DNA of 64,000 nt from Oopsacas minuta (taxonomy: Eukaryota; Animalia; Porifera). The notes beneath the pieces were generated by a model. That model searched no databases, was not told where the DNA came from, and saw only the letters and a list, made by a program, of their open reading frames with translations. Each line of letters begins with the position of its first letter. Positions within the stretch are counted from its first letter, which is position 1. The DNA lies in NCBI GenBank assembly GCA_024704765.1, contig JAKMXF010000326.1:1-64000 (forward strand). The letters run 5' to 3'. Made by a program: the position numbers and the translations under genes. Of this stretch, positions 10,101 through 58,214 are shown piece after piece.

Positions 10101-10577
10101 TTGAGCTCACATTGATATACATGGAAGATGATGCAAGTATTGATATCTGGAAATCAAACTGTTCCATCTGTAATGTTACTAGATGGGATATCATACGTAA
10201 ACTTATTTTTACTACTACTAATTGCTTTCTGGCCAACAAGATTAAGAACTATAATTCACTTGTAACTTCTAGGGGTATAGGAAAACGTAAACTGAAAAAG
10301 TTCTCATGATTTTGTGAAGTGTATATATTATTATTATCGTAATTGTATGTATTTACATTTATTATTTATGTTGATTGGGTTTTTGTCCAATAATATTAGC
10401 TTCAATGAACTTCAAATAGAATTTCAATATCTTAGTTTAATACCAGCGAGGGATTATTAATAACACTTGAGAAAACATTTTGATTAGATTTTTAAGACAA
10501 TAACAGAATTCTCCAATATCAGCTAATAACGCATCCCTGGTACTTTTACTGTTAGGCCTTATATTTAGTAGGCGATG
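7175..10577 (+). mobile_element. P-superfamily (THAP) DNA transposon, full-length, defective
   Basis: TIRs 7175-7244 and 10518-10577 starting CAT(A/C)GCCTACTAAATATAAGGCCTAACAGTAA (left copy 10 nt longer); 7-bp TSD ATTTGAG at 7168-7174 and 10578-10584. Confidence 0.93.
7445..10309 (+). pseudogene. THAP-domain P-element-type (THAP9-like) transposase, frameshifts and stops
   Basis: N-terminal C2CH THAP finger (CSASGC...W...VCIKHF); core motifs QMDEIHIK, ISTDNYPLN, FDFVHIIKSIRNNWL, ERQNVRLVLKVFN, FLQTDPLEHH, DRGGLKYP spread over five ORF pieces. Confidence 0.9.
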
Positions 10578-10878
10578 ATTTGAGATATTTCAGCAATTCT
10601 GTAATTTTTCAAGTTGAATGTCAAATTGTGACGTGACGGAGTAAAAGGATTCACCACGGAAGATTAATCAGTGTGGCACAATGTAATCGATGTCAATTCG
10701 ATTACATAGTTTGAAAACAATAAATTAGTGAAAAATCGACCGATAGAGATCTACTCTTTATAGAGTGTGAATAAAAGAGGGATAGTAATATAATCAACAT
10801 CCAGGATACCACCAAAGTCCATTAACATTAACATTCGTTCTCCCTAAGAAATATTCACTTCCCTTCGTTCTACTTTTA

Positions 10879-12173
10879 CGAGGGATACTCAATAACCTTT
10901 GAGCCTAAGTACCAAAAAGCATCAATCTATATTTATTTTGCTATAATGTTCGAAATAGCATCCCTTAGCTTGAATACGCTTGTTTATTCTTTCAAACCAA
11001 GCTTGAATAGCTTCTCTAAATTCATTTCTGTTGATGTCTCCGATCACTTCTCTAAGGCCCCTCAAGTTCAAATTTAATGAAAAATTTCTGCCATTAAGGT
11101 ATTTTTTATTCTAGGAAAGAGTCAGAAGTTGTGGGGTGCAAGTTGTGGAGAATAATGGGTGTGTGGCAAAATATGTAGTCTTGATTCTTTAATGAATTGT
11201 GTGGCCATTTTTGATGTATGAGAACTGGCATTATCGCGATGCAAAAAAGTTCCCCTTAATCCTGTCCCAGGACGCTGTGAATTTATTGCTTTTATGACTA
11301 GAGGCAAACAACTCTCTGTATACCAGGTTGAATAAATTGTCTTACCAGGTTCAATAGGTACAACAGTTTTAACAACCATTGTATTAAAAAATTGCATGCA
11401 ATTGTTTCTTGGCGTTCTGAGTTCTGCGAACCGTTGTTGGGAGACCTTCTCCAATTTCACATCATTGACGGCTCTGCTGTTTTGTTTCTGGATCATAGTG
11501 ATAGATCCATGTTTCATCACCAAATATTATCTTGGAAATATCTATACTGTTGCAATTGTTGAATTTTTTAAGCATTTCATGGTACCATTTCACTCGATTC
11601 TTTCGCTCAGGATGAAGCTGATGTGGGATCCAGCAGGCACAAAGTTTTCGTAGCTGAAGGGATTGGTGTAAAACGGTGTGCACTGCCCCAGATGAAAAGC
11701 CAATTTCGTGCTGAATCCTCATATATGTAACATTTGGGCCTGCTATCACCATTTCCTCAATTGACTCAACAATTTCCTCTGTAATAGCATATGGGGATGG
11801 TCCAGGGCTGGGTTGGTCTTTAAGATGAAAATTCCCACACTTAAATTCTCTGTACGATCTTTTCACTGTTACCGCGGATACCTTGGTATTCGGAAAGGCT
11901 GTATAGAAATTGTCGTGACATTCTTGTATTGTTTTCAAAATTTTGAACTAAAAAAGTATTATCCACGAATATCACGCCTCGATAACTGTATTGAGGATTT
12001 GGTAACTAAGGAATCCATAGATAATAAAATACTGCGATCTGAAAAGTATATAAGATAAAGTTACAAGATTTTCAGCGAAGTATATTTATTCCATGTTGAT
12101 TCGAAAGAAGTAATGGTTCACTTATATAAGAGCTCGCAACTTAGTCAAGCTCAAAACATATAGAGTGCCCTCG
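10879..12173 (-). mobile_element. mariner element, defective
   Basis: Imperfect ~28-bp TIRs starting CGAGGG, flanked by TA on both sides; 1295 bp. Confidence 0.9.
10933..11938 (-). pseudogene. mariner transposase, frameshifted
   Basis: WIPHQL, IIFGDETW, HRDNASSH, YSPQLAPHNF motifs in adjacent frames. Confidence 0.88.
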
Positions 12174-14825
12174 TAGAACCTATCGCATATGTCAACTCTT
12201 GCATTCTCTATCTTGAAAAGAGTCGGTTTCCACCTGAGGATTCTAGTTACTGGATGTTAACTGTATGTCCATAATAAATAAAGCTTCTTCTCTATATATT
12301 ATATAAGGCAGGAGTGCCAACTATCCAGGTCAACGAGTGTAAAGTTAGCTGATTATTCGACCATATAAACTTCAATCCAAATTTAACCCACTTCAAATTA
12401 TTAAATTTCAACGAATTGATCTAATTCGATAGAGGAGAGTTAAATATTTTATGTAATGTGATCTTTGTGGAAATCTTTACTATTTATGGGAATTTTTGAT
12501 CAATTGCCTATGTATACGAATTCATTAAAATACATATCCTCAAAGTTAGAATTCGATTCTGAATATTAGTATACAGATTTGTACCATATGATTAGAACGG
12601 TTTAATATTATCAATTCAACGAAATAGGTTTATTGATTCACAGAAAATATTCATACACCCCTTCACCAAAATATATGTATTGAAAATATTTCAATCTCCT
12701 GATTTAGTTTTGTTTGCATTGCAATCTTTTTGAATTTGCGTTTGCTCTCATATTTGATATTGTTCATTGCTCTTCACTATTTTGTCTGCCTACCTAGTAT
12801 AATATTTTCATTGATCGGACGTATTCATGATTACCATTGAATTGTTGGATGCTCGCATTGGATTGTACTCTCTTCGGAAATGCTCTAATTGTTCCAGAAC
12901 CTCATTTGAGTCTCTCATTTCTTTTGGTGATATGTCCATACTAATTTCTACTCTGTTTGCCTGTGTAATTTCAATTCTACAGATCTGTTCGCAAATATGA
13001 TGACATATAGCTTATCCTACGAATTCTGGCAATCCATTGGTTGCCGTTTTGGTAACGTTTACTATATCTATATACAAATATAATTATAATATGAACCGAA
13101 AAATGTTTACGTCGATTTGTACACATATATTTGTTTTGTCTCTAGAATTACAAAGGGATATCAGGCTAATGATATGTGAAATGGTCTCCACTAGTTCATT
13201 CTTTTGAAGTTCTCATTAGCAAGTGGTCCAGTATTCCCAGTTCAATTTGGGGATCGATTGGCAAGAAGGTTGTGTGTTATAATAGAGCTGACAAGAGAAT
13301 ATTGTTTGTAGAATATGGTCAACTGTACGCACATCAGGTACTTTTGGTGTTGTAGAATTAAATATACGCAAATATCATCCAGAATTGCGAACCTATTGAA
13401 TGATCCTAATATATCGTAACAACACGAGCACAAGTGTAAAACAATTTAAGAACTTTACTACCAAACCTTTCCCTAAACTATGTGATAGTTCAGGTTTCGC
13501 TTCACATCATAGTCTCAGTCCCAATAATGTGCCACTGGAAAAATAACTAGCCAGGTTCAGGGTCAAAGAGAAGGATATTGCCTGGATGAACTCAGATTTC
13601 CTAGAAGAAGAAAACCACTTAAAAAGGATTTTCTTAGGAAATATACAAAATAACAATTTATCTACTTTGACGATTAGGAAAGCTCCATTCCGGAAAATCA
13701 ACGGAAATGATATTTTAACCGATGAGGGCTTTGCCACCATTGAGTAAATTCTAAAATCTTTAAAAGAGATCCACTAGTGGCTATAACAGCAGGTTTGGAT
13801 AAGTGGAGACGTACATAAATGAAACATTCGGTTTCAATTATTCCATTAGTCACGAAAGAAGGTAATGATTCGACACTTTGAGAATCAGTCATTAGCCCAC
13901 AGTGGAAATAGTTAAATGGATATCTTCCTCTATGAAGCGTAGAAAACTAATCCATATGCCAACTCCCTGTACCTCTATTCTTAGTATTAAGATTTCGTTT
14001 TTCGATGGTGCAATAAATGATTTAGAGATAAGTAAACAAGACGTTCACACTTCGTAATTACAATTAATTAGAGTAAGGCTGCACATGCTAAAGCAGAGGA
14101 ATTAGAAAAACATTCTTAGTGGTAAATTACTGTCAAATTAGAAACTCTACTCACATATCGAGGACTAGATAATTCTTGATTTTTGAATATCGTCAATTCA
14201 TTTTTCCCATTCAATAAGGTGTCTTCCAAAATATTATCATCACAATTCAATTATCTCTACATTATGTTTCATTAATGTTTGGCTTTCAAGTAAGGGAGGA
14301 AAGAGGCGTAAAGGATCGAAGATCAAAGCGCTAGCTGTCAAGATATGACGCTTAGTTAAGGAGATGATTAATCGAGGCTGCAAACAAAAATGAACTTGGA
14401 GTCATTCAAAATGGAACACGAGTAAACTGATATATTTTAAGATTAGATAATAACCCAAGGTACCTTGTATTTTTGAGCTATAGGAATCTCTTAACACCAC
14501 TGTCATCCGAACGAATTGCAATTCGTAAAATGATCTGGCAATATCAACTGTAATTTTTAATTATACTAAGTTGAAATACTTGTAATAATCCAAATATATC
14601 TTTCACAATCACAATACCACGGAAAAATCAGTCATTATGACCATTACCGCCCATTCTATATCTAGCGAAGGTGCCATAAACTATTCTGGTCCTTCATATA
14701 TTAGCGTACTCTGTAATTAATGGATAATGTGCATTCAACGAGTATTTGTTTCCTCATTATCATTGGTAACCCTTACGATGATCCAACCGTACTTGTTCTG
14801 TTGTTAGTTTGCAATACTTCTTATA

Positions 14826-33839: not shown

Positions 33840-34124
33840 CTAAATATAAAGAAGCCAATATTTCAACTATCAATCAAGGATTAATAACGTAAAATAAACT
33901 TGAAAATGACCATATACCATAATATTTGTTTTACGACAAGATACATAAAGCAAAACTGAAATTCGTGTATCATGTAAATACTTAAGTATAAACTTGGTAA
34001 AATATTTGAAAAAACTTATATAAAATACATTGAGAAGTTATAAATATTTCGTATCCAATTTAAATAAATAAATCCATAATATAAATCAAATAGAGATGCG
34101 AATGAAGCGTCAGACAATGATATA

Positions 34125-35400
34125 CGAAGGGCACTCGAAAAGTTTTGTCGTTTATTATCAAACTACAAATACTTTCTAATAAGATTATTTTGTGTATATT
34201 TAGACTCATATTAATTACCTACACAACCAATTTCATCAGTTAATCTTTTATACTTTTCGAATTGTATGATTCCTCAACGAGAATCTGACCTCACAAGACG
34301 CGATTTTAGAGCGATGATTATAATTTTTTGTTCAAACTTGAGAAGAGCCGTTTGGAAATACACGAAACCTTGCAGAAACACTTTAGAAATATAGCTCCTT
34401 GTTTGAGACGAGTAGAGCAATGGTACTCAGAGTTTATTCTTCGAAATTATATTCTTGAACATGGTCCCCGTCCTGGTAGGCCTAACAATACACACACGAT
34501 AGAAATGTAGAGCTGGTGTTGGACCAAGTAACAAAAGACCCTCATGTTACTTAAGCTCAGTTAGAACGTGAAACCAAATTGTCATCGGGGAGTATAAACG
34601 TCATCTACAAAAAGAGCTCGAGCTTAGAAAGTTATGTGCACATTGGATCCCGCAATCTTTGTCGTTCGATCAGAAAAAGTGCCGAGTGGATTGTTGCAAA
34701 TTATGCTTAAACGATTTGCTAATTGAACTTCTAGAGCTATTTCTGAAATACTCGCAGGCGATGAGACATGGCTATACCACTATGACCCAGAAACAAAGAG
34801 ACAATCTAAGGAGTGGGTTGAAGAAGGTGGTTTACCTCGAACAAAGGTCTGGAGAATTAGATCAGTCGGAAAGCAGATGTGACCGATTTCTTTAGACCTA
34901 GTAGATTTGTTGAAGGAATTGCACTTGAGGATAGGAAGACAGTTACTGCTGATTGGTATACCACAATATGTCTTCCGAAAGTATTCAGTGCTATCGAAAA
35001 ACAACGTGAGAAGTCAGGTGTCCGAGGAATCCTGCTTCACCATGATAATGCTTCATCACATACAGCATTAAGAACTCGTGAGTTTTTAGAGATTTCTAGG
35101 ATCTGAACGCTACCCCACCCAACCTACAGTCCAGATCTAGCCTTTGTAATTTTTGTTATTCCCAAAGCTGAAAGATCAAATTCGTGGGAGGAGATTTTTC
35201 AGCAATGAAGAGTTGACCGGGACACTTTTCTTAGCAATTGAGGAGATACCTAAGAGAGAATGGAAATGTGTTTTGATACCTGGTTAAACGCTTGAAAAGG
35301 TGTATAGCGTCAGGCCGAGTATTTGAAAAAATGTGACCATATATTATGTAACACTTATTATATGAGTATATAAACGACAAAACTTTTCGAGTGCCCCTCG
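34125..35400 (+). mobile_element. mariner element with frameshifted transposase
   Basis: 30-bp TIRs CGA(A/G)GGGCACTCGAAAAGTTTTGTCGTTTA (1 mismatch), TA flanks; WIPQSL, GDETWL, HHDNASSH, YSPDLA motifs. Confidence 0.93.
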
Positions 35401-36324
35401 TATATCGTTAAAGAAGTAACTAAAGCTTGAATCCTAGTATTCAATTCAGCAGCCTCATAATTGACAGCAAAAGCTTCATCAATTAGAAATTAAGGGTTAA
35501 GAAGCCTCAAAAACAGATATTTAGTCTTGAAAATATCGAGGATGGACCTGATTAGTTAGATTATAGGATATAATAAATCATGGGATCTAGCAATCTATGG
35601 TCATCTTGTTGACCGAGTGTGGAGATGATTCTCCAGTAGTAGGGCAATGATACTGTAAATGTACAATATTTTGACCAATAAACTGTCAAATATCAACAAT
35701 TAATATACTATACAGGAAAGAGCGAATCAGTAAACCCAAAATAGAAAGGGTGATAAAGAGGGCCTCAGACAGAAGGACAATCACTCTACCTCAATTCAGA
35801 AATTAGGGTATATAGTGACGCCTAAAACGCACATTTGTTGCACGGGCCAGTTTGAAGGTTCGACCATATATGGGGCCGAAAATGCAGGTGGACTTACAAC
35901 CCTTACTTCAATTTTAATGTAGAAGGATATTTTCTAAAAACACAGAATTGTGGGGTATAGACATACTTAGCAAACTCTAAATGAATATTGCTATATATAT
36001 TATGATAATGGGAAAATGACGATCAATTAAGACGATCCAGAATAATAACCCGGAGTTGTATACTTTCGCGAAGGAAATGTCAGCAAAATTCCTCCATAGA
36101 AACTTGACTTTTTGATAATAAGATGTCATCATCAGATCACAATTAAAAACAGAAAATTAGTGCAAACTCCCAAATCAATAGATTTGTCAAGAAGAGATAT
36201 TCGAGCCATTATACTATTTCAGTTTTACCTTCGAAAAAATAACCAAAGGTCTTGAGGGATTCTATAAATCTTTCTGGAATTGAGAAATCCAGCCGTCCTA
36301 ATTACATGAAAATTTGTATACACA

Positions 36325-38980
36325 TGTTGCAGTCCAACTATGAATTTGGCCCATTTACGAATTGACCACACAACTGCCTATTCGCGAATAGACCAATTTC
36401 AATTGGTCCGAGTGCGAAATATTTTTAGAATTACCCAATTGGTTTGTAAATATATTCACAATGCTTCCTCACCATGAAATTTATTAAGAATTTAATAGTT
36501 ACAGAAGCTATTACTTCATACTACTACTTGTTCTTTCTGTGTGCTCAAGAATAATTGTCATACAAATAATTGCTTATATGCTTTCTGGAAGCAGTTACTA
36601 TTTCGCTGAATGCAGTAATAGTAGTTTATATCTGTTATTTTGTATTGCCTATTGCTCATTTCGTTAATGTGCGTTACTCAAGGTGACTGCATTACCACTC
36701 TCATCTGCTTCTGCTGGTTTGCCTAATGACCTTGATCTTTGCTAGCGATTAACATTGAGACGGACAGGGATTAATAAATATATTGATAAGCAATAAATTG
36801 TATATGGTATGAGCTCATCTAGATATCTTAATGAATATGTGATTGAAAATTCTAGAATGGCATCAAAGGAAACATTTTTCACGTCATCTCTGTATCCAAA
36901 GAAGCAATCAATCAGAGTTTCAAACTAGAGAGGAGATTGATGAAAAAGTCAATATCCTGATAAGAGGAAAGCCAACCCAAGGTAAAACTACTTCAAATGA
37001 TATAGACAGAACAAAAAGTATACACTTATCAAATGTCGAAACATCCAGAATATTATATCTTCGCGGAAATGATGATGTTCCAAACAAAGGAGTGGTTGCA
37101 ATTGAAGATATTTACGATATACTAAAAAAAGTACATGTAGATCAAAACCATTGTGGTCGAACTGGGCTCTACAAACGTCTGTCAATGGAGTATCATGGAA
37201 TTCCTCGTTCCCTATATCAAATCTATATCAATCACTGTGAGATATGTCAGCGTAAAAATCAAGAAAATCATTGAAATCCCTTGTAATAAAACCTATTTCT
37301 TCCTCTAATTATCTTTCTCGGAGTCAAACCGATCTTATTGACTTCTCTACTGTATTTCCTGAAGTAAACCAGCCGTATAATTGGCTTGCAGTTCATCAAG
37401 ATCATTTTACCAAATTCATTCGGCCCAGACCCCTAAACAGGAAATCTGCTGAAGAAGTTACTGATTTCCTCAAGGACCTATTTTGTAAACTAGGCCCACC
37501 TTTGATATTGCAATCTGCAATGGAAGAGAATTTAACAACTCTTAGTTGTTCCAACTAATGAACGAGAAGTGGCCTGTGACCACAATTATTCGTGGCAAAC
37601 CTCGTCACACGGAATCTCAAGACTCATTGGAACGAGCGAACCAAGACATCAACAAACATTTTACCACAATGATATTAGAGAATGAGAATGATACCAATTG
37701 GACCAAATATGTAAGGTTAGTGCAGTATAAGAAGAATACGAATTACCACTCAACGATTGGAATGACACCTTTTCAGTCAATATTTAGTAGAAAACCACCC
37801 ATTGGGTTATCTGAACACGGTTTTCCAATCGAATTAGTGTCCGATATATCAACAGAGGAAGATCTCAACCTATCCATTCAAGACTTAAATCATACCGAAC
37901 TCCCTCAACATGAAACTTCCTCCGCAGAATATCAAATATACTCCAACCTCTCTAGTCCAGCTCAACCCGAGTGCTCTGAGTTTCTTTCCCATCCATATTT
38001 GGAGGAAATATCACAACCTCTACCTAACACTGTTCATATTTATGAAGAATCCAAGATCTACGTTTTCCATCCGAACTTTTTCCTTCTGCTTCATTTAATT
38101 TAAAGTTTCCTATTGTGGAGGAATTAGAAGTTAATAACCCAAATGAATCAGTTCATATTAAATCCCAATCCGTAACTTCCACAAAATGTGCTGTTTGTCA
38201 CAAAGAAACAACTCAAGCGCACAGTTGTCCTGGATGTTTCAGGTACATACATGCGATTCGTGGTAGGACTGAAGGAGAAGAAGGATATGGAAGCTCAGTC
38301 TGGTGACATTATTGTGACCTACAGAAGCGTCAGTCAGAATCGGTAACTCAGCGGAGGGCAATTAAACGTAAGCAGGTGAATCTTCATCAACGCATGCTTA
38401 AAGCAAGTTGCAATCGTTTTCCTGATGCAAAAATAGATGACAACACCATTTGACCAATATCCAATCGGATTCATTAACTTTCGGAAATAAGAACATGTTT
38501 GAGTTGTGTTAAGCAAAGAAGATGAACTCTACTCGATTGGAACAAAATGTGGAATATTAGATACGAAATATTCTAGAAACCAGTTCGATATCTGCACGTC
38601 CAAGTTCATAGAAAAAGGAGTTGTTACTCAAAACAGAATTTCTCAAAGAACTGCTATGCAAAATGCTTCTCAAGGTGTTACTTACTTATGCAAGTGCAAA
38701 AGTTGCTCAACTCCTCGTTGTCCATGCCGAATAGCATCTTCAATTTGTCACTCATGTTGTCACAACGGGAAGTGTTGTTTCAACAAACCAAACTGACAGA
38801 GCACTATTAGCATCAATAGATTATATAATCTTTATAGTGTATAAATGCATTTACACACAAATCAATTGAGTAAATCTAAAAATAATTCGCACTCAGACCA
38901 ATTCAAAATGGTCTATTCGTGAATAGGCAGTTGTATTAGTCAATTCGTAAATGGGCCAAATTCGCATTTGGACCTCAACA
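36325..38980 (+). mobile_element. Ginger2/TDD-type DNA transposon (retroviral-like integrase, long TIRs)
   Basis: TGT...ACA termini; ~100-bp TIRs (TGTTG..GTCCAA...GAATTTGGCCCATTTACGAATTGAC...); 4-bp flanks CACA and CATA. Confidence 0.88.
36809..38796 (+). pseudogene. KRAB-A-domain-protein-2/SCAND3-like integrase (HHCC + rve + Cys-rich C-terminus), frameshifted
   Basis: HVDQNHCG...HCEICQRK zinc motif; QTDLID, QDHFTKF, ILQS, GKPRHTESQDSLERANQD; CAVCHK..HSCPGC; terminal CKCKSCSTPRCPCRIASSICHSCCH. Confidence 0.85.
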
Positions 38981-41048: not shown

Positions 41049-41727
41049 GAGGTGCATGCATTAGTTCGAATTTTAAAGTAGTTATTAGTTCGAATTTTCT
41101 GAGTAGTAACAAGTAAGAATCAATTTTTAGTTTATTGCAATAAATTCGAATCAATTTTTGGTCTATTGTACAAGCTCGAATCAATGTTCTGACTGTTGTC
41201 ACAAGTCAGAATCGATTTGCCGACTGTTGTCACAAATGAAAATACATTCTCTGAACTGCTGTCACAAGTAGGAATCGATTTTCAGATTGTGTTGTCGCAA
41301 GTAAGAATCGATTTTCAGACTGTTGTCACAAATTTAACAAAAAAATCCAAGGTTCCGCCATTTTGCAAACTTGTATAATAATTAGTCTAACAAAAGTCCA
41401 TCCAAACACAATATTACCATGAAGTCCACATCCCCGCTCCTAGGTAGCTTAATAACGAGTACAAATGATAACTCCCAGATTCACAAGGTAGTGAACTAAA
41501 TCCCTAATCCCCTCCCAATGGTACGGGTTTATAATTACTAAAATAAAAAGTTTTGCCCAGCCTCGTTTTGCCACGCGACATCTCGGAAAAGTAGATCCTA
41601 ACTTGTTACTATAGACTGAAAATCGACTCGAACTTGCTACAATAAACTAAAAATTGATTTTAACTTGTTACAATTCAGAAAATTCTACTAAAGACAACCC
41701 TAAAATTCGAACTAAAGCACCGCCCCC
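41049..41727. mobile_element. Foldback/Mutator-like MITE whose long TIRs are built from ~30-bp tandem units
   Basis: 41049-~41200 is an imperfect inverted copy of ~41575-41727 (TTAGTTCGAATTTT...GAATTTTCTGA...AATCAATTTTTAGTTTATTG); flanks ATGCCAAA and ATGCCAAT. Confidence 0.7.
41085..41335. repeat. Degenerate tandem array, ~30-bp unit (AAGTAAGAATCGATTTTCAGACTGTTGTCAC-like), ~7-8 copies
   Basis: Repeated gaatcgattt(t)cagactgttgtcacaa read directly. Confidence 0.8.
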
Positions 41728-43019: not shown

Positions 43020-43219
43020 CACTAAAGCAATGGGACTGGTCTATTTTTCAGGACAGGAATTGGAAAAACGAGTTAGGGAGTATTATACTGAGTATATCTT
43101 TCAGGAACAGTGCACTTTTGCTGAATAAATATAATAAATACTCGTATCAAAGTTCTAGAATTTAGATAAACTTCAAGAAATATAGGATACATATAAAAAT
43201 ATATATTCCAAAGGCAAAC

Positions 43220-44821
43220 CTTTGCGATAAGAGATCTGAGTAATGAGTTAGTTGTACAATTCAATTCTGAAGTTTGTTGCATCGAATATATCGAATCAAA
43301 TAGGTCATCACGAGAAATATCAACTTCTTCATGTTTCTTGTCCCAATCAACTAAATGTAATTGCCCAGCTTCATCAGATTTTATATCAGCAACTAGTGAA
43401 GAACGGAGATCAGCTAATTGATAAATTACACTAGAAGGACGGGGAGGCAACCTCAGATAAAACACACCTAATGAGACTTCCAAGTGAAATAAAACATCAT
43501 CTTCAATCCACTCTAATAGACCACTATTATCCAACGTTGGGAAGTAGTGAGCGAGAGGGTTTATTCGGCTGAGGAGGATATTATATACTGGAGAAAGCAT
43601 ATGCAGAGAGAATTGTCGTAATCGTGAAGAATGAGTGTTATCGATAAAAGAGTCCCCACGAAAAACAGTCACAGGGGAATCAATTACTGACTGAAAATCA
43701 AAAATTAATGCAGATGTATTAATTGGGCCAGAAAAAGCGATAGAGCTGGAAATAAATCGCAAAACTACAATAAAGCTGCTAAAATGCGAATCTGTAATCA
43801 GAGCTAAATAATAGTAATCAAGATTTCCGATATGCCAAATCATAGGGTTGGAAATGAAGAAAATGATTTCAAAATCAATCAGAGATAGAAGGTTGATCTT
43901 AGAGGATTTGAGTTTCGATAAAATATTGATAGAGAATTGTGTTTCAAAATTACAATGGAAAACATCAGTGTCCAGTCTGTACAAGAATTTTCTAGAAAAT
44001 CCTCCGAAAAGAGACGGAAAAATAGAATTAAATGCATGCAACTTTGGATGTATTAATCGTATTCCAAAAAAATTGAACACACAAAGGTTAGATATGGGTT
44101 CAAAGAGTGGAAAAACAGACCGATTTATTAGTGAAAACGGAAGTAGAGAAAAGATATTATCAAAAGGTTGATGTACAGTGCAGTTAACAAAGAATATCTG
44201 TTTGATATATTGTTGTAATTCAAGGGCCAAAGGTGACAAATTTTGATTAGTATTGATCCAAACTAGTCGAATTGAATGAGATAAAAGGAATTTAGTCAAA
44301 TCGGGAGTTAGCACATGTTTGAAGAACAAACTCGACAAATTTTTTCCTTCAAACGAGACAAGCTTGGTTGTAAAAAAATATTCGAAATCCTTTCGAGCTG
44401 CAGGAAATCTACCTAAGATAAAGATATATTTTCGAACATATATATTACTATACCTCACAGTAACTGGTGAAAAAATCTCTGCAGGATCCCATGTTTGAGA
44501 ATAGAGAGATTGTATGAGTCCATTCCATAAATCCCGGCTATTAACAGTTGTTGAAACATCATTGTCAGTAATAAAGCTACACATATGAGAAATGGAATTT
44601 TTCCAGGTTGTTGATGAAAATGGCAAAAAAGAGCCATTTGTAAAACTCAAAAATGATAAAAGGTTCATGTTCCATTCGATATCTGAAAACATAGAAAGTG
44701 AAAGGTTAGATATAACGAAAAATTGTAAAAGTAAGGTTAAGATCAATCGCTGAATGTGAAAAAGATTAGAAGTCAATAATTCGGGAAAGACAAGAAATAA
44801 CAACCTCCATTTATTAGCCAT
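43220..44821 (-). CDS. Large intact exon (534 codons) of an unidentified host gene
   Basis: Uninterrupted frame in ~30% GC DNA; acceptor ttgtatttctag| immediately upstream of 44821 and candidate donor AAG|gtttgc at 43219; Leu/Phe/Ser-rich; no domain recognised. Confidence 0.75.
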
Positions 44822-45025: not shown

Positions 45026-47510
45026 TAGTGATGTTGAACGAATATCATTTTAAAATAATCGGTTATCGAATTGTTAATTCGCAAAGTAACGGATTGATCG
45101 GTTATAATCGGTCAAACTCAATTATCATTATATTCTGCCTTTAACTGCTAGTACTTTCCTGTATCTTAATTTATCAAATGAAATCAAATTAGATAAAATA
45201 ATGAGTTAATGACTAATAATGAAGAAATCCTAAAATCTAATAATTTATTATTACTTTATCTCTTGCTTCTTGAAATATGACTTTAAGATCATTAAGCTAT
45301 CAACCGAGTTCTCACTCAACCGTGATCTCAACTTCTTCACAAAAAGTCCTGCTGCTGAGAAAGCACGTCTTGCCTCAACGCTGTCGGAGGAATTGTATTC
45401 AGTACTTCCTCTATAGAAGAAATATTTTTGGATTTGTCTCCAGTGGCTTCAATAAGGCCATTTCCTATATCAGAGATAGAAATCCAATATCTTCTTTCGG
45501 GGTTCTTACATAAATTGTAGAATTTTGTATTGCTCTTTTTAATTGGTCAGCAAGTAATATCGGAGAGCTACGTATTTCAACGTCTTCAATGTTTCCGAAG
45601 TCTCCTGAGAATTTAAAATTACACTATCGAATTGTTCAGTTCCATGCTGTGAATACAATTGTGAAAGGATCATTTTCATTGTCTTTTGCACTACTTTTCT
45701 TTTAATACACGGATCCTCCCTTATCGAATCAGGATTCAATAAATATCTCATAACATTGATAAGATTAGACTGCCGCCTCCCGTTAAATCTTTGTCTTAGG
45801 TTCTGCAATAATTGTATGGAGAACTCTGAACAAACCATTTCAAGTTTCTGGAACATAAAATAGATTATCCCTTCTGCATTGAGTAAATTTGCGTCACGCT
45901 GGCATAGAGCAGATATCCTCATTTCGATGGGTTTTAAACAACTGCAAAAGTTTTCCAACACTTGCCAATCAAGTTCACAAACTTCCATGTTTAAATTGAT
46001 GTCGATCATTGCTTTGCATAGTGCTTTTCTTACAGTTAACAATCGATTAATCATGCTAATTAAGCTATTCCACCTAGTTTTGCAATCCATGACTAGATTT
46101 GAAGTTTTTCCTAAATCTTCCTTTATGCACGACTGAAGTACTTCATTTTTTAATGGGGACTTCCTAAATATACGAACGATATTTCGAAACTTAACGATAA
46201 CAGTTTCTCTATTTATTTTCGAAGGCGGGATAAACATGTCTTCATCAATTTCACCGTCATCTTCATCTGAGAAAATTGATTCACCTTCAGTATCTTCTGC
46301 ACCACAAAGGCCATCATTATATGAGTCAGAGATAGTCGACTGAATTTGAGATGTGCCAATTGGCTCTTCGTCCGTTCCTTCATCATAAATAGGAATCCTA
46401 TTCTTGGAGTATAATACTGCAACTACTGCTAAATGTACCCCGTGAGCCAAACAAAGTTGCTGATGAATACCACTTAGTCTTCCCATCTTCACCATGACAG
46501 GGGCTCCATCACAGATGATGCTAACAATATGCTTCTGCAACTCAATATTGAATTCAATCCATATCCTTTCCAAAAGCTCAAGAACCTTCTCAGCTGGCAT
46601 CTTTCCATAAATACGCTTCATTCCAATGTTCCAAAAGTTATTGATGCTATGTATATTGACATTCATATACCGCTTATTTTGGATAGAAGTATATTCGTCC
46701 AAGTACACGCTCATCCATTTTCCATTAGCAAGTAAAAACTGTAACTGAGAAGTGACCACTCCCTTAACATGATTTGCATTCTTGAAACTGTAGAATGGTC
46801 TGGAATTGGGGTGAAAGCATTCTCTTGTAACGAAGAACGGATAAATTTACTTTGGCTGATTATCAGATAATCGAAACAATCCTCAGCAGCTAACCTAGCA
46901 ATTACCTCATCCAAACCTTGTTTTTTGGAAAATAATGGTAACAAACTTTGAGTACTATGTTTCTTCGAAGGGGGTTCGTTGTCAGAAATGTGATTCAGGC
47001 CCAATTGGATATTATGTATCAAAAGATGATTTCTTAACCCAGTAGTTGTACTGCCTTTACAACTTAGATTCTTCTTACAAATAAGGCATTTGGCTTCTTC
47101 CCCATATTTCTCGAAATGTTTCCATACCTCAGACCTCTTAGCCATAATACCATACAGTATTGTAAGTATAGAAGTAACGATTTATAGAAAAGCTAGAATA
47201 TTCAAAATTATGCTGTAACAAATACGTTTACAGATAATTATACATATAAATATACGTATCGCCGTATGCCTATAAACTACTATATCTAGCAATTAAGTCT
47301 CTAGCCGTTAAAACATAATTCAAGAATACATAGAATGACAATTGTGTGATTTTTTTAATAGAAATTCCAATAGAAACTTTATTGTTGACTAAAAGGTGAA
47401 ATTTTGAAAATAGCCGATTAATCGAAGTAGAATAATCGGTTATCGATAATAAGTAAAAATTCAATAATCGATTAAATAATCGAATATTTACTAATCGGTT
47501 ACCATCCCTA
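45026..47510 (-). mobile_element. hAT (Ac/hobo-like) DNA transposon, full-length, defective
   Basis: Termini TAGTGATG and CATCCCTA; perfect 8-bp TSD ATACGTAC (45018-45025, 47511-47518); AATCG-type subterminal repeats. Confidence 0.93.
45251..47145 (-). pseudogene. BED-finger hAT transposase, frameshifted, probable 3' intron
   Basis: BED finger VWKHF...CLIC...STTTGLRNHL; LDEYTS; CDGAPVM; CLAHGVHL; KTRWNSL; C-terminal IPPT/VEARRAFSAAGLFVKKLRSRL dimerisation domain. Confidence 0.9.
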
Positions 47511-48723: not shown

Positions 48724-48958
48724 CAGTAGTCTGGAGCTACTTTGGCCCACTGGGTTTGCTATAGCCCAAATATCAAAGTTTCAAAGCAACTAGATTAGAT
48801 TCACTATTATACTTGAATATGACTTGCCAAATTTTTAACGAATTTTCAAATATTGGTAGACAGTTTCGAATACAAATACAATATCTATTCGATACGTAAG
48901 GAAATTTCAATATTTGGGCTAAAACAAACCCAGTGGGCCAAAGTAGCACCAGTTACGG
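48724..48958. mobile_element. Tc1/mariner (pogo-like) MITE, 235 bp
   Basis: ~57-bp TIRs containing GCTACTTTGGCCCACTGGGTTTG...AGCCCAAATAT; TA flanks. Confidence 0.85.
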
Positions 48959-49968: not shown

Positions 49969-50224
49969 CAGTACATATTAATCTTATACTAATTTGAATG
50001 TCGACACATTAGGTGCTTTAGGGTTGATGAAAAGCATCGAGATAAACTCTTGCGCCCTACATTACAACTGTATTAAAGTGATGCATATAAGCTAGTATAA
50101 ATTAGTGGTGGGCGAGGTAAGTCTTTAACCCCTTGCGGGCCCAAAATCTATCAGATCTTGCGACCACAATAACACTTATGTAAAATGTTGATCTTACTAC
50201 AAAACAGTATAAAATTGCATATAT

Positions 50225-50287
50225 TAAAAAGTACTGTGCGCATGTCCATTAGGTACTGTGCGCATGTCCGTTAAGTACTGTGCGCAT
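50225..50287 (+). repeat. Left TIR: TAAAAA + 22-bp unit GTACTGTGCGCATGTCCATTAG x ~2.6
   Basis: Units start at 50231, 50253 and 50275; each contains TGCGCAT(G). Confidence 0.95.
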
Positions 50288-50407
50288 GCATGTAAAATAT
50301 TTATTCAATTTGTTGTATGCATATATAATGTTACTACGGTTGTATGCATATATATTGTGAATGCAGGTCAGAAAAAGTAATATCACGAATTGTACGTATT
50401 CCGATAT

Positions 50408-50590
50408 CAATAGAGTCTCGTTAATACGAACAAGGGTTAAGCCGTAACTCTGGATAAGGACTACAATTTTGTCCCCTTTATCAGTTCCCTTCGATGCCTT
50501 TTCAATGTAATTAGTTCGGATAATACGTACTCCGGATAAGGAGTACGTATTTTGGCAGTCCCTTGTGTACGTAATAACGAGAGTCTACTA
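50408..50590. mobile_element. pogo/Tigger-type MITE nested in the KDZ element
   Basis: Imperfect ~29-bp TIRs CAATAGAGTCTCGTTAATACGAACAAGGG and CCCTTGTGTACGTAATAACGAGAGTCTACTA; internal perfect 12-bp-stem palindrome at 50522-50551. Confidence 0.7.
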
Positions 50591-50672
50591 TAGTATTAGT
50601 ACTCTGGTATAATTCTCTGACTGTCTCATACAATAAGAAATAATCAGTTTCATCCTTCTCACCGGTTTAAAC

Positions 50673-53600
50673 ATGGCCGAAAATATCTCTACCTCAACTT
50701 TTGAAATTAAACACCCACATCCAAGGAAACGAAGAATAGTTGAGGAGAAACTTGACATTACTGCAACAACCCTCAACATTGGAGGAATTGAAATTTCGAA
50801 GACAGATGTTTCGCCAGTAGATATCACAATATCAGAAGAGCAGTTTGAAATTGTACCAAGTAAGTTACGTATTGAAAAGGCCCATTTCCATGGAATGCTA
50901 TACTATTTAACACGACATTACTCAATATACTTTTTTAGGCCATCCCAAGAAAGAAGTATACACTGAAATCTTTTCACAAGAAGAGCTAACTATTCCAGTA
51001 CTAGATCAATATGTACATCTGCTTGCTGATAAACAGAAGGCTTGGCGTTTGCAAGATTGCCTGTAGTATTCATGTCAGATTTTGAAGAAATCAATGGTAT
51101 GACACCTATATGTAACTACAGTGACCCTCGCTAATCCGAACCTCGTCAATCAGAACAGAGCCTAAATGTCATACAAGTATACGAGCCTTTGGTTCGTCGC
51201 TTTGCGAAGAAATCGCCGCATTGCGCCTCGGGATATTCAACGGGCAAACAACAATTGAGATTAAATAATATAGATTTAATTCAACTGCGAACAAAGCCAC
51301 CAAAGAATATAGCCTAGTTAGGCGAGGTGGTGGCTAAGTTAGTTACCATGTATTCAATTTTATCAAACGCTGCTTGGCAGCCTTGTAATCATTTGCACAC
51401 AACATTCGAAAAATGCACTCCCAGATCCTATAGTGTTTCAATTCATGTTTTCATTTTCTAGGTGAAGTAATATTGACCAAGAAAAAAGTTTTGATCGAAA
51501 CTTGTCTGATGAAATGCTTATCTTATCATACGAATTCTTGCACACATTATCAAGCATATGAATTGTGTTTGGAATTCCAAACCTTAAACCATTCCGAATC
51601 CAAATCCCATGCTGGCAGTACTTACTACACATTAGGTGCAAATACAATTTTTTTGCTGAAGAATGGCTATCATTGCCTATATAGGAAAGAAATGAAGTGG
51701 TATTGCGACAATTGTAGTAGTATGTGTAAAGAAAAGTTAATCCTACAGGCAATCATGGCAGAATACAATGATCAGTTACTCATTCCTCAGAAACCTCTTG
51801 ATTATTCTACCATATCTAAACAATATCCTCCTTTTAAACTTAGTATGAACCAGGCCATTATATATAATGAACAGTTAAGACGAGGATTATTTCTACCCCC
51901 AAATCTTGAACCAGATATTTTGCATTGTGAGCAAGGACATAAATATGTTGCCAAAAGTCTAGTCGTAGCAAAAAAGGGAATCATTATATACACAGAAAAT
52001 GATGTCCTCGATTTAAAAGAACATACAGGTATGTTATTTAATTATATACTACATAGTATATATTCTTTATTTGTCCTCTAATATTCAAGCTAGCTTATTT
52101 ACTCAATTTTTAGTGTATACATCTACTTGTGAAGGAAGTTGTAAATGCACCTCTGTGTTTGAAGGAAATAAATATTTACTGCTGAATGTCAATAATCGCT
52201 ATTTCATCCACTATGGAGTATTATTTGAAACAGCGAGTTTATGACGATGTCTCGGAATACACTACATGGATACATGAGGTATGTATTTAGATACATTTTG
52301 TCCGTTGGTTATGTACTCAATCGAATACCAAAATAACAAAAGAAATACATATCGATTGAAAGTGATCTATTACGGTCGGTAGTCATAATTATATAAACAA
52401 TTAAATCAAATTCATTTTAGAAAGTTGATCTGGTTACTCTTTATTATGTTTAGAGCAAAGAATAATAAATTTGAGAGAATGGGAAGGGAACTCACCTTCA
52501 GTTATCATATACAACGGCATGGATGGAATGGGTACTTACGTATGTTAGACATTAACTATAAGACAAACTATATTTGCCCATTATGCCAAGAAGCTCCAGA
52601 ATTCTTAATTATGGATGGCATAACAATGGGGACAATTAAGGAACTCCCGAATACAGTTGAAGAATACCTGGAAGATCAGAGGTTATCGTTTGTCCCATTA
52701 TCAAACAGGGTATTGGTATCTGATCTACAAACCAGAAAATTGATCAAAAGTTACTATTCATTTGGATTGGGTGAAAGCGAGTTTCATACCATGGTCAATT
52801 CTTTAGAGTTTGAAGCAATTACAGAGTACATTATTTACGCTAACAATGTAATTGATGAGGTCAATGTGATTAATCCGACTTATCCAAATGCTAAAGCTAT
52901 TATGGAACTATTCTCCAGATCAGAATGAATTTCTGGCGTTTTTCCTGTATCTATCCTTAGCGAGTGCGAGAAGAAAGCTATTGCTACTCTCTCTTGAATT
53001 AACCAAATTGATGTATGTCTGCTTTATGAGATTTTTGAAAAAATGCATACTCTAAGGCTATTCCTTAGCTCGTTTGGTGAAGTTCAAGAACAATGTACTA
53101 CTAGTACAGGATTTACCCTTCATCCTATTCTTGCTGGTGTTCTAAGGGCTATTCTATCCAAGATTGAATTACTCAATAACTATAGAGAAGGACGGAAGAC
53201 AGTAGAGGCTTCCCCATCAAATGACACTCTAGATAAATACTTTCCAGCAATAACAAAACGTTACAGGTATTATATAATTGTACTCAACTATTCATTCAAT
53301 ATAATGCATCTGTTGAAAACATAATATAAATCCTATTGTGCAAACTTTCAAATATATTGAACCCTTAGATTACCGATGTATGAAGATGATAACGAAGAGA
53401 AATATAAAGGATGTACAAAAATATATCCGAAACATCAAAGGTTATCACCAGGACTGTTAGTTGTTGTCTGTAGACATAAAGTGTGCTATGGATTTCAAAT
53501 ACTTCGTAGTAAAGAATCTACAACTACAGTATTTACCTACTCCTGACGTTGTTCATAAAGCCCCCTCGTATTATAATATACGACAATGCTTGCAATCTAC

Positions 53601-54021
53601 ACAATACATGTATCATCAGGTTAGAATTAATATACAAAATACGTACAGCCGTATACCATCTCTAAGATTTTTAATTTAATCTATGTAATGCTCTTAAAGT
53701 GCTAAGCATACGTACTTACTAGCATTAGATAATAATAACTTCTATATTATCATTAGGGAACCCAAACTTTTCAAAGATACTACATTTTTGGTTGATCGCT
53801 TTCACTGGAAGAATCATTGCTGCAATCCAGCTTATTCTTTGAAGTCAGTGAAGAGTCATGATTTCATGAGAATAAACTCTCAAGTTTGCGAACAGGTGTT
53901 CTCTACATTAAGGAGAATAACCACCCAAGTATCTTTCATGCGGATCGAAAACATATTCTACAATGTACGATATTTCTTATACGGTTTGAATGAACAAGAA
54001 TTACGAAAACTAAAGTGCTAG
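50673..54021 (+). pseudogene. KDZ / HMGXB3-like transposase with Cys-cluster (CxC) N-terminus, ~8 exons, inactivated
   Basis: Spliced product contains CPLCQEAPEFLIMDGITMG (D), GCTKIYPKHQRLSPGLLVVVCRHKVCYGF, IIYDNACNLH (D), REPKLF...FLVDRFHWKNHCC, INSQVCEQVF (E). GT-AG introns start at ~50860, 51097, 52029, 52279, 53267 and 53620. Frameshifts near 51050, 52230 and 53540; TGA at 52926 and 52995. Confidence 0.85.
51119..51160. mobile_element. pogo/Tigger-like MITE end inside a transposase intron
   Basis: TA-CAGTGACCCTCGCTAATCCGAACCTCG; partner end not clear. Confidence 0.4.
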
Positions 54022-54116
54022 TAGCTAATACACTATTCATGATTCATGAATAATGAATAAATTATATTAAATTAACAAGTATACTTTATATTCTCTTTAC
54101 TAAACTCTTTTTGCTG

Positions 54117-55997
54117 TTACAACGAGGAAACCTTTTGTGTAATATCCTGTAGGCCAACACATGGTTTGTGAAACCATTGGGTATACACTTGACAATTCAC
54201 CATATTCTTAAAAGCGAACTCGGGTAGACGACAAATACACCAAAGTTCAATTGTATATTCCAACTTCTTATTGACCTTTATCCGTGAACAGAGTCTTTCA
54301 GAAATTGTAGGCAGGGGTGATAATTTTTCAGAAATAATGAAATTACGCAGGTGACGTCTCATATTGCCCTGGTTCCATCTCAATATACTTGGTTCTAAAC
54401 CATTCGCTAACGCGATACTAACTACAATAGCAAAGACACCACAATCTGAAATCCCTCTTTGTTGTTGTAGCTCTTGAACTGTAACTTTTAAATCTTCAGT
54501 CTCGCTTCGATAAAGCAGTGGAAGTTGGATGTCCAGCTCTTCACTTAGACCCCGGATTAATAACGAATCATATACTGATATATTTCCTTCATCGTCAATC
54601 CTAGACACTTTCCAGTGTAGTTTACCATCGTGGTGTATTTGAAAACTATTTAGTGCTGCTCTAACAAATTGGCGATTCTAATAAGATAAAAGACATACAA
54701 TTTGAAATGCCAATTATTTCAGGACGATAAAATAAGCAAAATAATAGATTTACCTTAGATAAAATAGTATCCTGGAATCCTTCAATGTCTGGATAATTAT
54801 TCTTTATCAAAACCTAAACATAATTTATTAAGTAACCTAGTAAAAGTTGTTTAGTTGTTTGTCGAAGCGAAGTGCGAACGTAGGTTATAAATGGTATTGA
54901 AATGTAATATAATTAAATCATAGAGAGAGCTTACCTCAAAGGCGTTGATAGTCACATCACTAAGAAAGGTTTTGTCATTCGATAGCTCTTTAAGACAGTC
55001 ATCCCTTACTTTTTCGTCTAAAATTCTCACAGATGTTACATTTAATGGAATTAAAGCCTTTGCTGCTGATAATCCTGCCATTGAAACTACAGATGTATCC
55101 AAAAGAGACTGAGGGGAAGTAAAGGGTGAGTGATCGGGTTGCTGTTCTGATATGGTATTTGGTGTTGAATGGATCGATTCACCAAGATATTGTGGAGACG
55201 ATGGGCATTTCTCTGGAGAAGTATTTAGAGATATTTCCACATTGGAATCCAGAGAGGAAGGTGAATGATCAGTTGGATTATATACATTCTCGTCATCCAA
55301 GTCTGAATCTAAACAATCTTCTTTTGATAAATGTATAGGTGACCTGTCTCTAAAACTATCAGATAGATCTGGAGAAAAGTATTCGCGCATCGATTTAATA
55401 ACGAAAGGCAAAGTAGTTCTGCCCATATTCTTTGATTGCTTGAGAAATGGAATTTCCTTGGGCCAAAATGTTGGCCGGTTTTCACTTTTCCCCCAAAAAT
55501 TACGCGGTTTTCCTACAATTAAAATATGATATATGTATTACCAAATTAATACTTACTTAAGTATTACACACCAATTTGTTTCAACAGCAGTACATACCCT
55601 GTACCCACGAAATAACAACAAATGGTGGCTTCCAAAACTAAGGGTAAGAAAACAAGAAACTTACTGTTCATCTTTTGAGTTCCCCATGATAAAATCTTTC
55701 TTAACGCCTGGACATTATGTGTGTGTGGATCTTGTTTCATCAGGTTCATCATTTCATCTTCTTTATAATCATCTCGAACAACTGATGAGTCTCCGACCAC
55801 AGAGCGTTCAAATGTAAGCTTCGCCAAATTTGTTCTTTCGTTTCAGCAACATGCTGCCGGTAAGTATCGCTTCCCAGAACTGATAATTGTCCCCTCCAGG
55901 AGTAGACAACCCCTACAGATTCTCCTGTTACCTTTATAAACGTTGCAATCGCTTTAGCTAAATGCTCCCTAGCGTTGCCCTTGGTAATACGAGGCAT
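54117..55997 (-). CDS. Passenger gene (~510 aa, 4 exons, one frameshift): NRF1/EWG-like DNA-binding domain + Ser/Asp-rich linker + Ulp1/SENP-like (C48) cysteine protease + degenerate PHD finger
   Basis: Exons 55997-55665, 55512-54935, 54813-54754 and 54677-54117 have canonical GT-AG junctions that keep frame; 1-nt frameshift near 55820. Motifs: LRKIL...WGKSENRPTFWPKEIPF; FLSDVTINAF; QIHHDGKLHW; VYDS; QQQRGISDCGVFA; WCICRLP...MVNC..YTQWFHKPC. Confidence 0.82.
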
Positions 55998-56142
55998 TTC
56001 AGCTAATTTGTACAAATTATAGTAAGAAAGTATTCAGCTAGACTGGTAGACTAATTACTAGAGTGGAATAACTGGGATCTGAAAAGCAGTCTAATATAAC
56101 TTAATCTGTATAATATACGCCTACTATGGTACATGAATCCTT

Positions 56143-56205
56143 ATGCGCACAGTACTTAATGGACATGCGCACAGTACCTAATGGACATGCGCACAGTACT
56201 TTTTA
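56143..56205 (-). repeat. Right TIR of the KDZ element (inverted copy of 50225-50287)
   Basis: ATGCGCACAGTACTTAATGGACATGCGCACAGTACCTAATGGACATGCGCACAGTACTTTTTA. Confidence 0.95.
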
Positions 56206-57449
56206 GTACCTCTAAAATTGTATAAAATGTGAAATACTACCAGAACAAGCCCAAATTCATAATCACTGAGATTTGGCAGTCCATCTCTTCAATAAGAAGA
56301 TTGAAATTAGGGGTTAGTGATGTGAGTGAGCAGCGTACCTCATTTTCTAGATTTCGTCAGTTAATCGGAATCTTGTATCTGATTTTACTTTCATTGACGA
56401 AAATATTATGCGTGGAACAAAAAATAGACAGAATTTTAGCAGCTAGTAATCGAATGTAAAATTGAGCTACATTTCTACAGTCAAGAGTTGATTCAGTTGG
56501 GCATGATTGAAGATCAATAAGGTCAATCCATAATCTCGCAAAATCCAACCGGAATATTCGAGCCATATGCTCCACCTTCGACAAAGGAAATTATCTGGAT
56601 TGTGGAGAAAAGTTTAATAACCAGGAATATGTACAAAATACTTAACTAATTGGAAAAATTCTGTTTTAGCAGATTTATCCATTCCAGATATCGATCCATG
56701 TTAGGAATTGATTCTGCTTCTTCATCTACAGACAATCTTAGTTGATTAGGTAAAATGACGCAATTCCATCTGACTTAATTGCTATAAAAACAAATTAATC
56801 TTAATCATTAACACTTTCACTATAATATAGGCTGTCAATAATGTTTGATGTTTCCTGGTAATCCATGGTTAAGATTGTTCAAGTGGTGTGCTATATCAGT
56901 TAGAAAAGCGACATCACGAACCCAATCAATATCACGCAGATATTGGTCGTAAATGTAAACATATTTTGAAACGAAGAAATCGATTAGATGTAGCAACAGA
57001 GCAATAAATCAGTTTAAAACTACAACTCGGTTAACCCATCGAACGTCACTCAAGCATATTTTGCAGTCTATTTTATCTATATTTCAGCTCATTGACATAC
57101 ATTTTAAGTCCCCGATCTTATAATGCAAATAATTGCGTGTTGAACAGTCGACAAATTCGCATAGTATATCTTTCTATATTACATTCTTAATAATTTCCAG
57201 ACCCGCCAAAAGGCGCCCATACTTGACAGTGAGTATATGTGGCACACAATTCGGATGAATTGTATGTTTAGAAAAATTTCATAATAACATCTTATTATTA
57301 CTGTATTTCGAATTCATTAGTATCATTTTATGAAGTATCCAATGCAGAATTGAATTCAGTATACGTATTGTTATTCAAGTTTTTCAATGTATGGCTGAAT
57401 ATTATAAATCACTCAAAAATTTAGAACTCAATTATTCTTGAACCATATT

Positions 57450-57904: not shown

Positions 57905-58214
57905 AGTTATCATAACTGACAATAAGCGATCAATGGAAATTTTAGCAGAGAGAGCCCCTTGAAAGATGATACAGTGAATAAATAAAAAGTGAGGAATTTC
58001 TTAGCGCAACAACGTGGTCAATCACAATTTACAGTCATTAATTGATGGTGCTAGATCAGTTGTTAGAGACAAAGTTATAATTTACAAGCTTATTTTGTGT
58101 CATAATTTTGTAGACATTTGATGCTGCAACTTATTGAGCCGTTTAGTGTCGTAACACAATGGTTTTAAATGTAGATTTTGATAATAAATTCAAAATTACA
58201 ATAGATTAGACCCA

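Follow-up and report, generated by a model that had tools for sequence, protein, structure and literature searches.

NRF1 is usually a single-copy factor in animals, and its mode of DNA binding was reportedly described as novel in 2023. The NRF1/EWG/P3A2 family (PF10491; PDB 8K3D and 8K4L; PMC10810270) combines a three-helix DNA-binding domain (DBD), which has a long W/P-rich loop and reads TGCGC-type sites, with an N-terminal MADS-like dimerisation domain (residues 54-172 in NRF1) and a flexible linker. According to the same paper, the NRF1 DBD alone binds the TGCGC half-site, and half-site DNA is still bound at ~3.8 uM.

The Kyakuja-Dileera-Zisupton (KDZ) DNA transposons (PF18758; PMC12730594, PMC11343200 and PMC9297572) have a transposase encoded by a multi-exon gene between terminal inverted repeats (TIRs), and the TIRs of Zisupton and Dileera come with an 8-bp target-site duplication (TSD) (PMC12730594, PMC11343200). 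It is already known from PMC12477816 and PMC11343200 that KDZ elements carry extra genes. The CxC clusters of KDZ transposases have themselves been proposed to recognise DNA, as cited in PMC12062965. Separate DNA-binding genes beside the transposase are present in Harbinger elements (Myb/SANT, named in PMC12730594) and in CACTA elements (TnpA). In Arabidopsis, VANDAL (MuDR) elements encode VANC, a precedent for sequence-specific anti-silencing by a TE-encoded protein with tandem-repeat targets in non-coding DNA (PMC5735166). In searches of paper listings and abstracts, and in passages of PMC8122590, PMC12062965 and PMC9297572, no tie between an NRF1-type domain and transposons was found; Repbase and subscription papers lie outside this survey. 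By a term search, the main text of the O. minuta genome paper mentions neither NRF1 nor Zisupton, and its supplements may list repeat families.

The window, i.e., the whole 64-kb stretch of DNA from the glass sponge Oopsacas minuta that was analysed, holds a two-gene KDZ DNA transposon with a transposase gene and a second gene. The element is delimited by its TIR pair, the TSD, the divergence of other copies and read depth, as follows.

50218..56212, no strand assigned: whole KDZ (Zisupton-type) DNA transposon, 5,995 bp
50210..50217, plus strand: left target-site duplication, TAAAATTG
56213..56220, plus strand: right target-site duplication, TAAAATTG
50218..50287, plus strand: left TIR, outer 7 bp mismatched, then three 22-bp units
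56143..56212, minus strand: right TIR, three 22-bp units
50673..54021, plus strand: multi-exon KDZ transposase gene, broken in the window copy
54117..55997, minus strand: second gene, with four exons at 55997-55665, 55512-54935, 54813-54754 and 54677-54117

A repeat scan of the window returned a 66-nt inverted repeat, 97% complementary, at 50222-50287 and 56143-56208. Among 32 positions tested in register with this repeat, a single one showed an 8-bp direct repeat, TAAAATTG, which is perfect on both sides of the element (any two window positions would share an 8-mer by chance with a probability of ~3e-5), and the ends were therefore set at 50218-56212. Other copies in public contigs part from the window sequence behind 56212/56213, and just past this point read depth falls to that of unique sequence. 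Both the 8-bp TSD expected of Zisupton/Dileera and the TIRs expected of KDZ transposons are present. An Rfam search of the element gave no match. The sponge element resembles described KDZ transposons in its transposase, the multi-exon gene, the TIRs, the 8-bp TSD and the possession of an extra gene. It differs from them in that this gene encodes an NRF1-type DNA reader with protease-like and PHD domains, not TET/JBP or an unknown ORF, and in TIRs built of tandem NRF1-like sites.

The transposase gene has introns at 50860-50938 and 53267-53368, and its acidic residues are kept in the motifs DG (52614), YDNAC (53582) and CEQ (53890). The last transposase piece of the window matches Pfam KDZ with E 0.016, and the window piece is 93% identical to the sister transposase P0017, which exceeds the cut-off of PF18758 (27.0 vs 26.6 bits). 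A Pfam CxC search on the window transposase pieces gave no match, though Cys clusters are visible; a weak CxC4 match was found in the transposase of another KDZ locus, L029. Relative to other copies, the window transposase has indels at 51059, 52229 and 53534 and a stop at 52926-52928. Within this gene, the stretch 51140-51350 shows numerous loose ends and a far higher summed depth than the remaining element; the probable cause is a distinct high-copy repeat that was inserted here or that the element shares.

The second gene lies tail-to-tail with the transposase gene, and its product has 525 aa in intact copies. The window copy is broken in both genes. In the second one, the damage includes the following feature.

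55814..55815, minus strand: frameshifting 1-nt deletion in the window copy

The window frame ends after 82 aa. The initial annotation had restored one nucleotide near 55820; the intact annotated sisters and all four public runs place the break at 55814/5. A tblastn comparison with the intact sister P0001 showed the frame change at residue 61 (55815/55818), and an additional base behind 55814 was found in each of the four runs, which represent one sample and whose reads speak for the family, not for the window locus. Once the break is filled with X, no gap is needed to align the window copy with three intact sisters of 525 aa, from which it differs at 20-22 of 510 aa; from residue 141 onwards it is identical to the annotated O. 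minuta protein P0005 (370/370 residues). The intron 55664-55513, also proposed in the initial annotation, was confirmed: it has 152 nt, follows the GT..AG rule, agrees with the annotated sister proteins and is seen as a joint in one of the four runs. In this run (X4), the joints 55511/55664, 54811/54933 and 54677/54754 were observed for the second gene and, with two transposase introns, five GT..AG joints show both genes spliced; the kind of run is not on record and several joints have fewer than 30 letters on one side. The joints are consistent with the annotated exon edges, and no different splice pattern, which could have destroyed the alignment to NRF1, was seen.

The DBD lies in the first two exons.

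55378..55752, minus strand: NRF1-type DBD, about aa 83-157, interrupted by the intron 55664-55513 (152 nt)

The initial annotation held that the N-terminus of this protein aligns almost without gaps to the NRF1/EWG/P3A2 DBD, and this is borne out for the DBD proper by profile and by fold. NRF1 was the sole family matched by single window pieces in both Pfam and PDB searches, the DBD piece alone reaching E 0.071 with PF10491 and E 0.15 with NRF1 in the PDB, while exon 1 alone found nothing relevant in either. An N-terminal profile of the three O. minuta families described below matched NRF1 in the PDB with E 5.3e-5 and 2.2e-4 (next 0.4), without gaps across 47 columns, of which 10 are identical in human NRF1. 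The AF2 model has a pLDDT of ~80 over residues 81-160 and ~48 over residues 1-80. With this model, Foldseek placed NRF1 at ranks 1-3 (probabilities 1.00, 0.91 and 0.90, next <=0.06; E values of just 0.12-0.35), and VIA aligned 77 residues to NRF1 186-276 with Z 8.0 and an rmsd of 2.4 A, the runner-up among 48,161 chains having Z 4.8. The comparison with the NRF1 structure proposed earlier thus put NRF1 on top in both programs, and the DBD fold of NRF1 (201-284) is matched by profile, Foldseek and VIA. The Atlas feature score to NRF1 clusters was 0.83, where values <0.9 give a lead at most. Significance is reached with the three-family profile and the fold, not with a single window piece, and homology to the NRF1-type DBD is practically certain.

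The Pfam check on Nrf1_DNA-bind, likewise proposed earlier, had a divided outcome: four of the 13 passenger proteins scanned exceed the PF10491 cut-off (P0013, P0019, P0020 and P0021 of families B/C, at 24.4-25.4 bits) and none of them belongs to family A, that of the window. Seven other family B/C proteins scanned were under the cut-off or without match. In family A, P0001 stays below the gathering score (14.8 vs 23.5 bits) and P0010 gave no PF10491 match at E 0.05. As in NRF1, R206 and W224 are kept and are invariant across the three families in the profile register. N242 is kept in families B and C, where R244 is replaced by Lys; unlike NRF1, family A has Gln/Lys at these positions, after a one-residue insertion. 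The claimed identity of spacings stands for LR-to-W, equal in all three families, and the WGK motif that had been called conserved holds for family A, while the other families carry WND.

The label of DNA-binding domain given in the initial annotation spans two NRF1 domains, the DBD proper, which is supported, and the dimerisation domain in front of it, which is weakly supported in the sponge protein.

55815..55997, minus strand: candidate MADS-like dimerisation domain as in NRF1, about 61 aa

Should this candidate domain be real, its equal distance from the DBD would be a further likeness of family A to NRF1. In this family, 57 residues separate G42 from L99, as in NRF1 from G148 to L205; the distances in the other two families are 53 and 56. 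This linker-crossing spacing, which the earlier alignment had also used, is weak evidence because family A alone matches and the NRF1 linker is flexible. An Atlas model of residues 1-75 of P0013 (family C) gave TM scores of 0.62 to an NRF1 cluster, 0.54-0.55 to SRF and 0.63-0.64 to mollusc zinc-finger proteins, none of which reaches the threshold of the tool. The pLDDT of AF2 over the candidate domain was <60, and a second AF2 model aimed at it had a mean of 51. The Atlas model and the spacing lend weak support to the view that the first half of the N-terminus may form an NRF1-like dimerisation domain.

Two further domains follow the DBD, from which a low-complexity linker separates the first.

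54317..54979, minus strand: C48/Ulp1-like cysteine protease domain with His, Asp, Gln and Cys motif residues
54117..54248, minus strand: PHD finger, damaged in the window copy

Matches to Pfam PF02902 had E 0.047 in the window and E 0.0018 in the best sister, all under the cut-off (best score 18.6 vs 20.7 bits). In fish Zisupton, an Ulp1 domain lies inside the transposase ORF; unlike there, the sponge Ulp1-like domain sits in a separate, convergent gene. The window PHD finger has one altered Cys, and a 14-nt deletion at 54120 removes its end, while an intact sister PHD exceeds the Pfam PHD cut-off. The nearest solved PHD fingers are those of PHF2 and BPTF (E 2e-8), both of which are readers of H3K4me3.

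The passenger genes of O. minuta, gathered by a search with the protease piece and then with the N-terminal profile, fall into three families at 19 dispersed loci, i.e., A with eight loci, B with two and C with nine, which are 29-53% identical to one another in the DBD. P0004 (51 aa) did not align and was left out of the protein cluster. Consecutive accessions put a transposase next to a second-gene copy at another O. minuta locus, which suggests that both may be mobile as a unit. The second-gene protein is not an NRF1 orthologue, as judged from the sequences, because of the low identity (10/47), the C48 protease and PHD domains downstream, and the 19 dispersed loci. Unlike NRF1, the sponge gene is multicopy, bounded by TIRs and TSDs and borne by a transposon, and a C48-like protease and a PHD finger replace the C-terminal part of NRF1. 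Automated names in UniRef already tag some sister proteins as NRF1-domain proteins. In NCBI, P0003, P0012, P0013, P0015 and P0025 bear the name 'Calcium-responsive transcription factor'. Since Pfam showed no CaRF-type domain in those of the five that were scanned, this name looks like a transfer error.

Relatives outside O. minuta were found from the transposase side. A KDZ-based scan yielded 63 loci, of which eight have at least 3 kb downstream of the transposase core; the other 55, with <3 kb, were left uncounted, and L030-L032 are copies of the L029 element. A similar tail-to-tail gene is present in two of the eight, L029 and L042, and absent from the other six, so the second gene is not needed by all KDZ elements. 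In L029, an NRF1-type DBD gene on the minus strand (9950-11300), made up of four in-frame GT-AG exons, faces a CxC4/KDZ transposase and matches the sponge DBD profile at 20.0 bits (0/2000 shuffles); no TIR was found in its 15 kb and no TGCGCA. In L042, the gene that faces the KDZ transposase (9100-14300, minus strand) combines DBD-like exons with C48 exons and an acidic linker. Its C48 exon has a Pfam E of 0.0093, and its DBD-like exons, weak alone (3.9 bits, 18/2000), reach 10.7 bits (1/2000) when L029 is added to the profile; no TGCGCA repeat was seen, and the ends were not located. Conversely, family A matches a profile of L029 and L042 alone at 20.6 bits (0/2000). The exons of both loci were picked by eye, and neither keeps N242/R244. 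Single exons of the two loci did not match NRF1, and a three-exon profile gave E 5.8. Passenger-based scans of metagenome and prokaryote contigs gave 317 and 58 pattern matches, none of them confirmed, and word-based protein searches returned O. minuta passengers only (3/562 and 8/7,994 candidates), which is weak evidence of absence. A KDZ transposase relative was also seen at 10001-10432 of L063, a 58-kb contig of a viral collection.

The TIRs of the window element contain NRF1-like sites, an observation that is new here and absent from the initial annotation. Three 22-bp units make up each TIR, and every unit contains TGCGCA, whose palindromic form presents the NRF1 half-site TGCGC on both strands; of the two half-sites in a unit, the second is degenerate. 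The sites are located at 50237, 50259 and 50281 in the left TIR, matching the 12-bp NRF1 palindrome (the human NRF1 consensus) at 10, 9 and 9 of 12 positions, and at 56144, 56166 and 56188 in the right TIR, matching at 9, 10 and 10. Six of the nine TGCGCA in the window lie within the TIRs of the element. All three matches with <=2 mismatches to the palindrome fall in the TIRs, with none at 58,017 positions outside the element; equally good matches occur at 7 of 278,052 positions in the 63 other loci. When the 22-bp unit was shuffled with its composition kept, 242 of 300,000 shuffles were equally good (P ~8e-4 to 1e-3). The TIR match amounts to a single independent event that was spotted once NRF1 had been proposed, but this proposal had fixed the motif. 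Among the other TIR pairs of the window, five of six are without the half-site, and the sixth, 981 bp, has one per arm. Taken on the sequences, the protein of the element probably binds its own TIRs, whatever its role there.

The second gene might instead be passive cargo, i.e., an old captured gene without a role for the element, with a coincidental TIR match. KDZ elements often bear extra genes (PMC12477816 and PMC11343200), and a GC-rich 22-mer has a half-site in ~4/100 shuffles, which would be in line with this reading; it is rendered improbable by the invariance of motif and catalytic residues across three families with DBDs just 29-53% identical, by the recurrence of the same tail-to-tail layout in L029 and L042, and by the 10/12 match with its shuffle P of ~8e-4. 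Slightly less doubtful, and still quite unlikely, is that a host NRF1 would read the TIR repeats and drive both promoters, the protein of the element binding another sequence or merely competing. The TIR match is indeed to the human NRF1 consensus and family A fits the base-reading residues of NRF1 least well, but it would then remain unexplained that the element combines NRF1 sites with a gene for the rare NRF1 fold.

Several other repeats were seen in the window. Between 21754 and 32999, the two arms of a 456-bp inverted repeat, 99% identical and 10.3 kb apart, carry one TGCGCA each; they may be long TIRs, or else a small element that is present twice. Four further TIR-bounded elements, at 36325-38980, 41057-41719, 34116-35409 and 48731-48952, are without TGCGC. 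The region 7175-10577 is a P-element-like transposon, in which 32-bp inverted repeats enclose a THAP domain and TNP-like RNase H pieces. At 43073-44821 and 45539-47181, a 582-aa open frame without Pfam match adjoins a minus-strand BED-finger (hAT-like) gene.

If the second-gene product binds the TIRs, two roles can be envisaged. By analogy, and at about even odds, it may be a self-targeting regulator that acts on the own ends of the element, keeping the element expressed and its ends open. The protein would dimerise via its N-terminus, each DBD would read one TGCGC half-site in the TIR repeats, and the PHD finger would read H3K4-methylated (active) chromatin. The tethered protease would free silencing proteins at the two promoters of the element from SUMO or a different ubiquitin-like tag. 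SUMO has a part in the silencing of TEs. The broken window copy would have to rely on intact sister copies. Like VANC, such a regulator would be a TE-encoded, sequence-specific protein with tandem-repeat targets in non-coding DNA. Unlike VANC, it is an unrelated protein beside an unrelated transposase and has its candidate targets in TIRs. The regulatory reading is favoured by the DBD homology, the sites in both TIRs, the splicing of both genes, the recurrence in L029 and L042 and the VANC precedent. The proposed DNA recognition by the CxC clusters, the missing TGCGCA in L029 and L042, the six of eight KDZ loci that show no such gene, the degenerate half-site, and the position of family A below the Pfam cut-off with its Gln/Lys at N242/R244 count against it.

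In the other role, which is unlikely, the protein would bind the TIR repeats mainly to assist the transposase structurally, by bringing the two ends together and loading the catalytic subunit onto them. The Harbinger Myb protein and CACTA TnpA are partners of this kind, and they share with the sponge element a separate DNA-binding gene beside the transposase; their fold is different, and most of the related KDZ loci observed have no partner of the sponge type. The symmetrical repetition of the sites in both ends, beside the cut sites, would suit end pairing, and a flexible linker like that of NRF1 could let a dimer span both of them (PMC10810270). Against it stand the six of eight KDZ loci with enough flank that are without the second gene, the protease and PHD domains, which point to chromatin, and the two start codons, both of which face inward from the same repeats (146 bp and ~385 bp away).

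As to the origin of the DBD, the initial annotation had offered a captured NRF1 paralogue or a transposon-linked origin or reservoir of NRF1-type factors. A recent capture is not supported, given the 10/47 identities, families just 29-53% identical and more distant versions beside KDZ transposases in two other contigs. A transposon-linked reservoir is supported by the 19 loci and the KDZ neighbours in the two further contigs. Weak links exist to plant EIN3 (VIA Z 4.3), to the fungal YDR124W-like family (L029 exon, E 0.21) and, at low scores, to GTF2I (VIA Z 4.0 for the DBD, Atlas features 0.78, and Atlas TM 0.58 for the N-terminal 75 aa), the GTF2I and EIN3 leads coming from the sister proteins P0001 and P0013 (window 55378-55997). 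A wider superfamily including GTF2I, EIN3 and YDR124W-like proteins is possible, and these weak ties suggest an old family with a transposon-borne branch, which they fit better than a transposon origin of NRF1. A bolder view, which we regard as unlikely, is that an animal KDZ lineage has long encoded an NRF1-type factor together with matching end sites, and would have given rise to NRF1/EWG of the hosts, or exchanged sequence with it, while spreading NRF1 sites across animal genomes.

With about 19 transposon-type copies in the sponge and two KDZ contigs, the NRF1 fold gains mobile and diversifying relatives. An encoded fold that matches its own terminal repeats makes this element a directly testable case of a transposon with a reader for its own ends, to which a protease-like domain and a PHD finger are attached. 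The families also offer natural variants for studying the site choice of the NRF1 fold.
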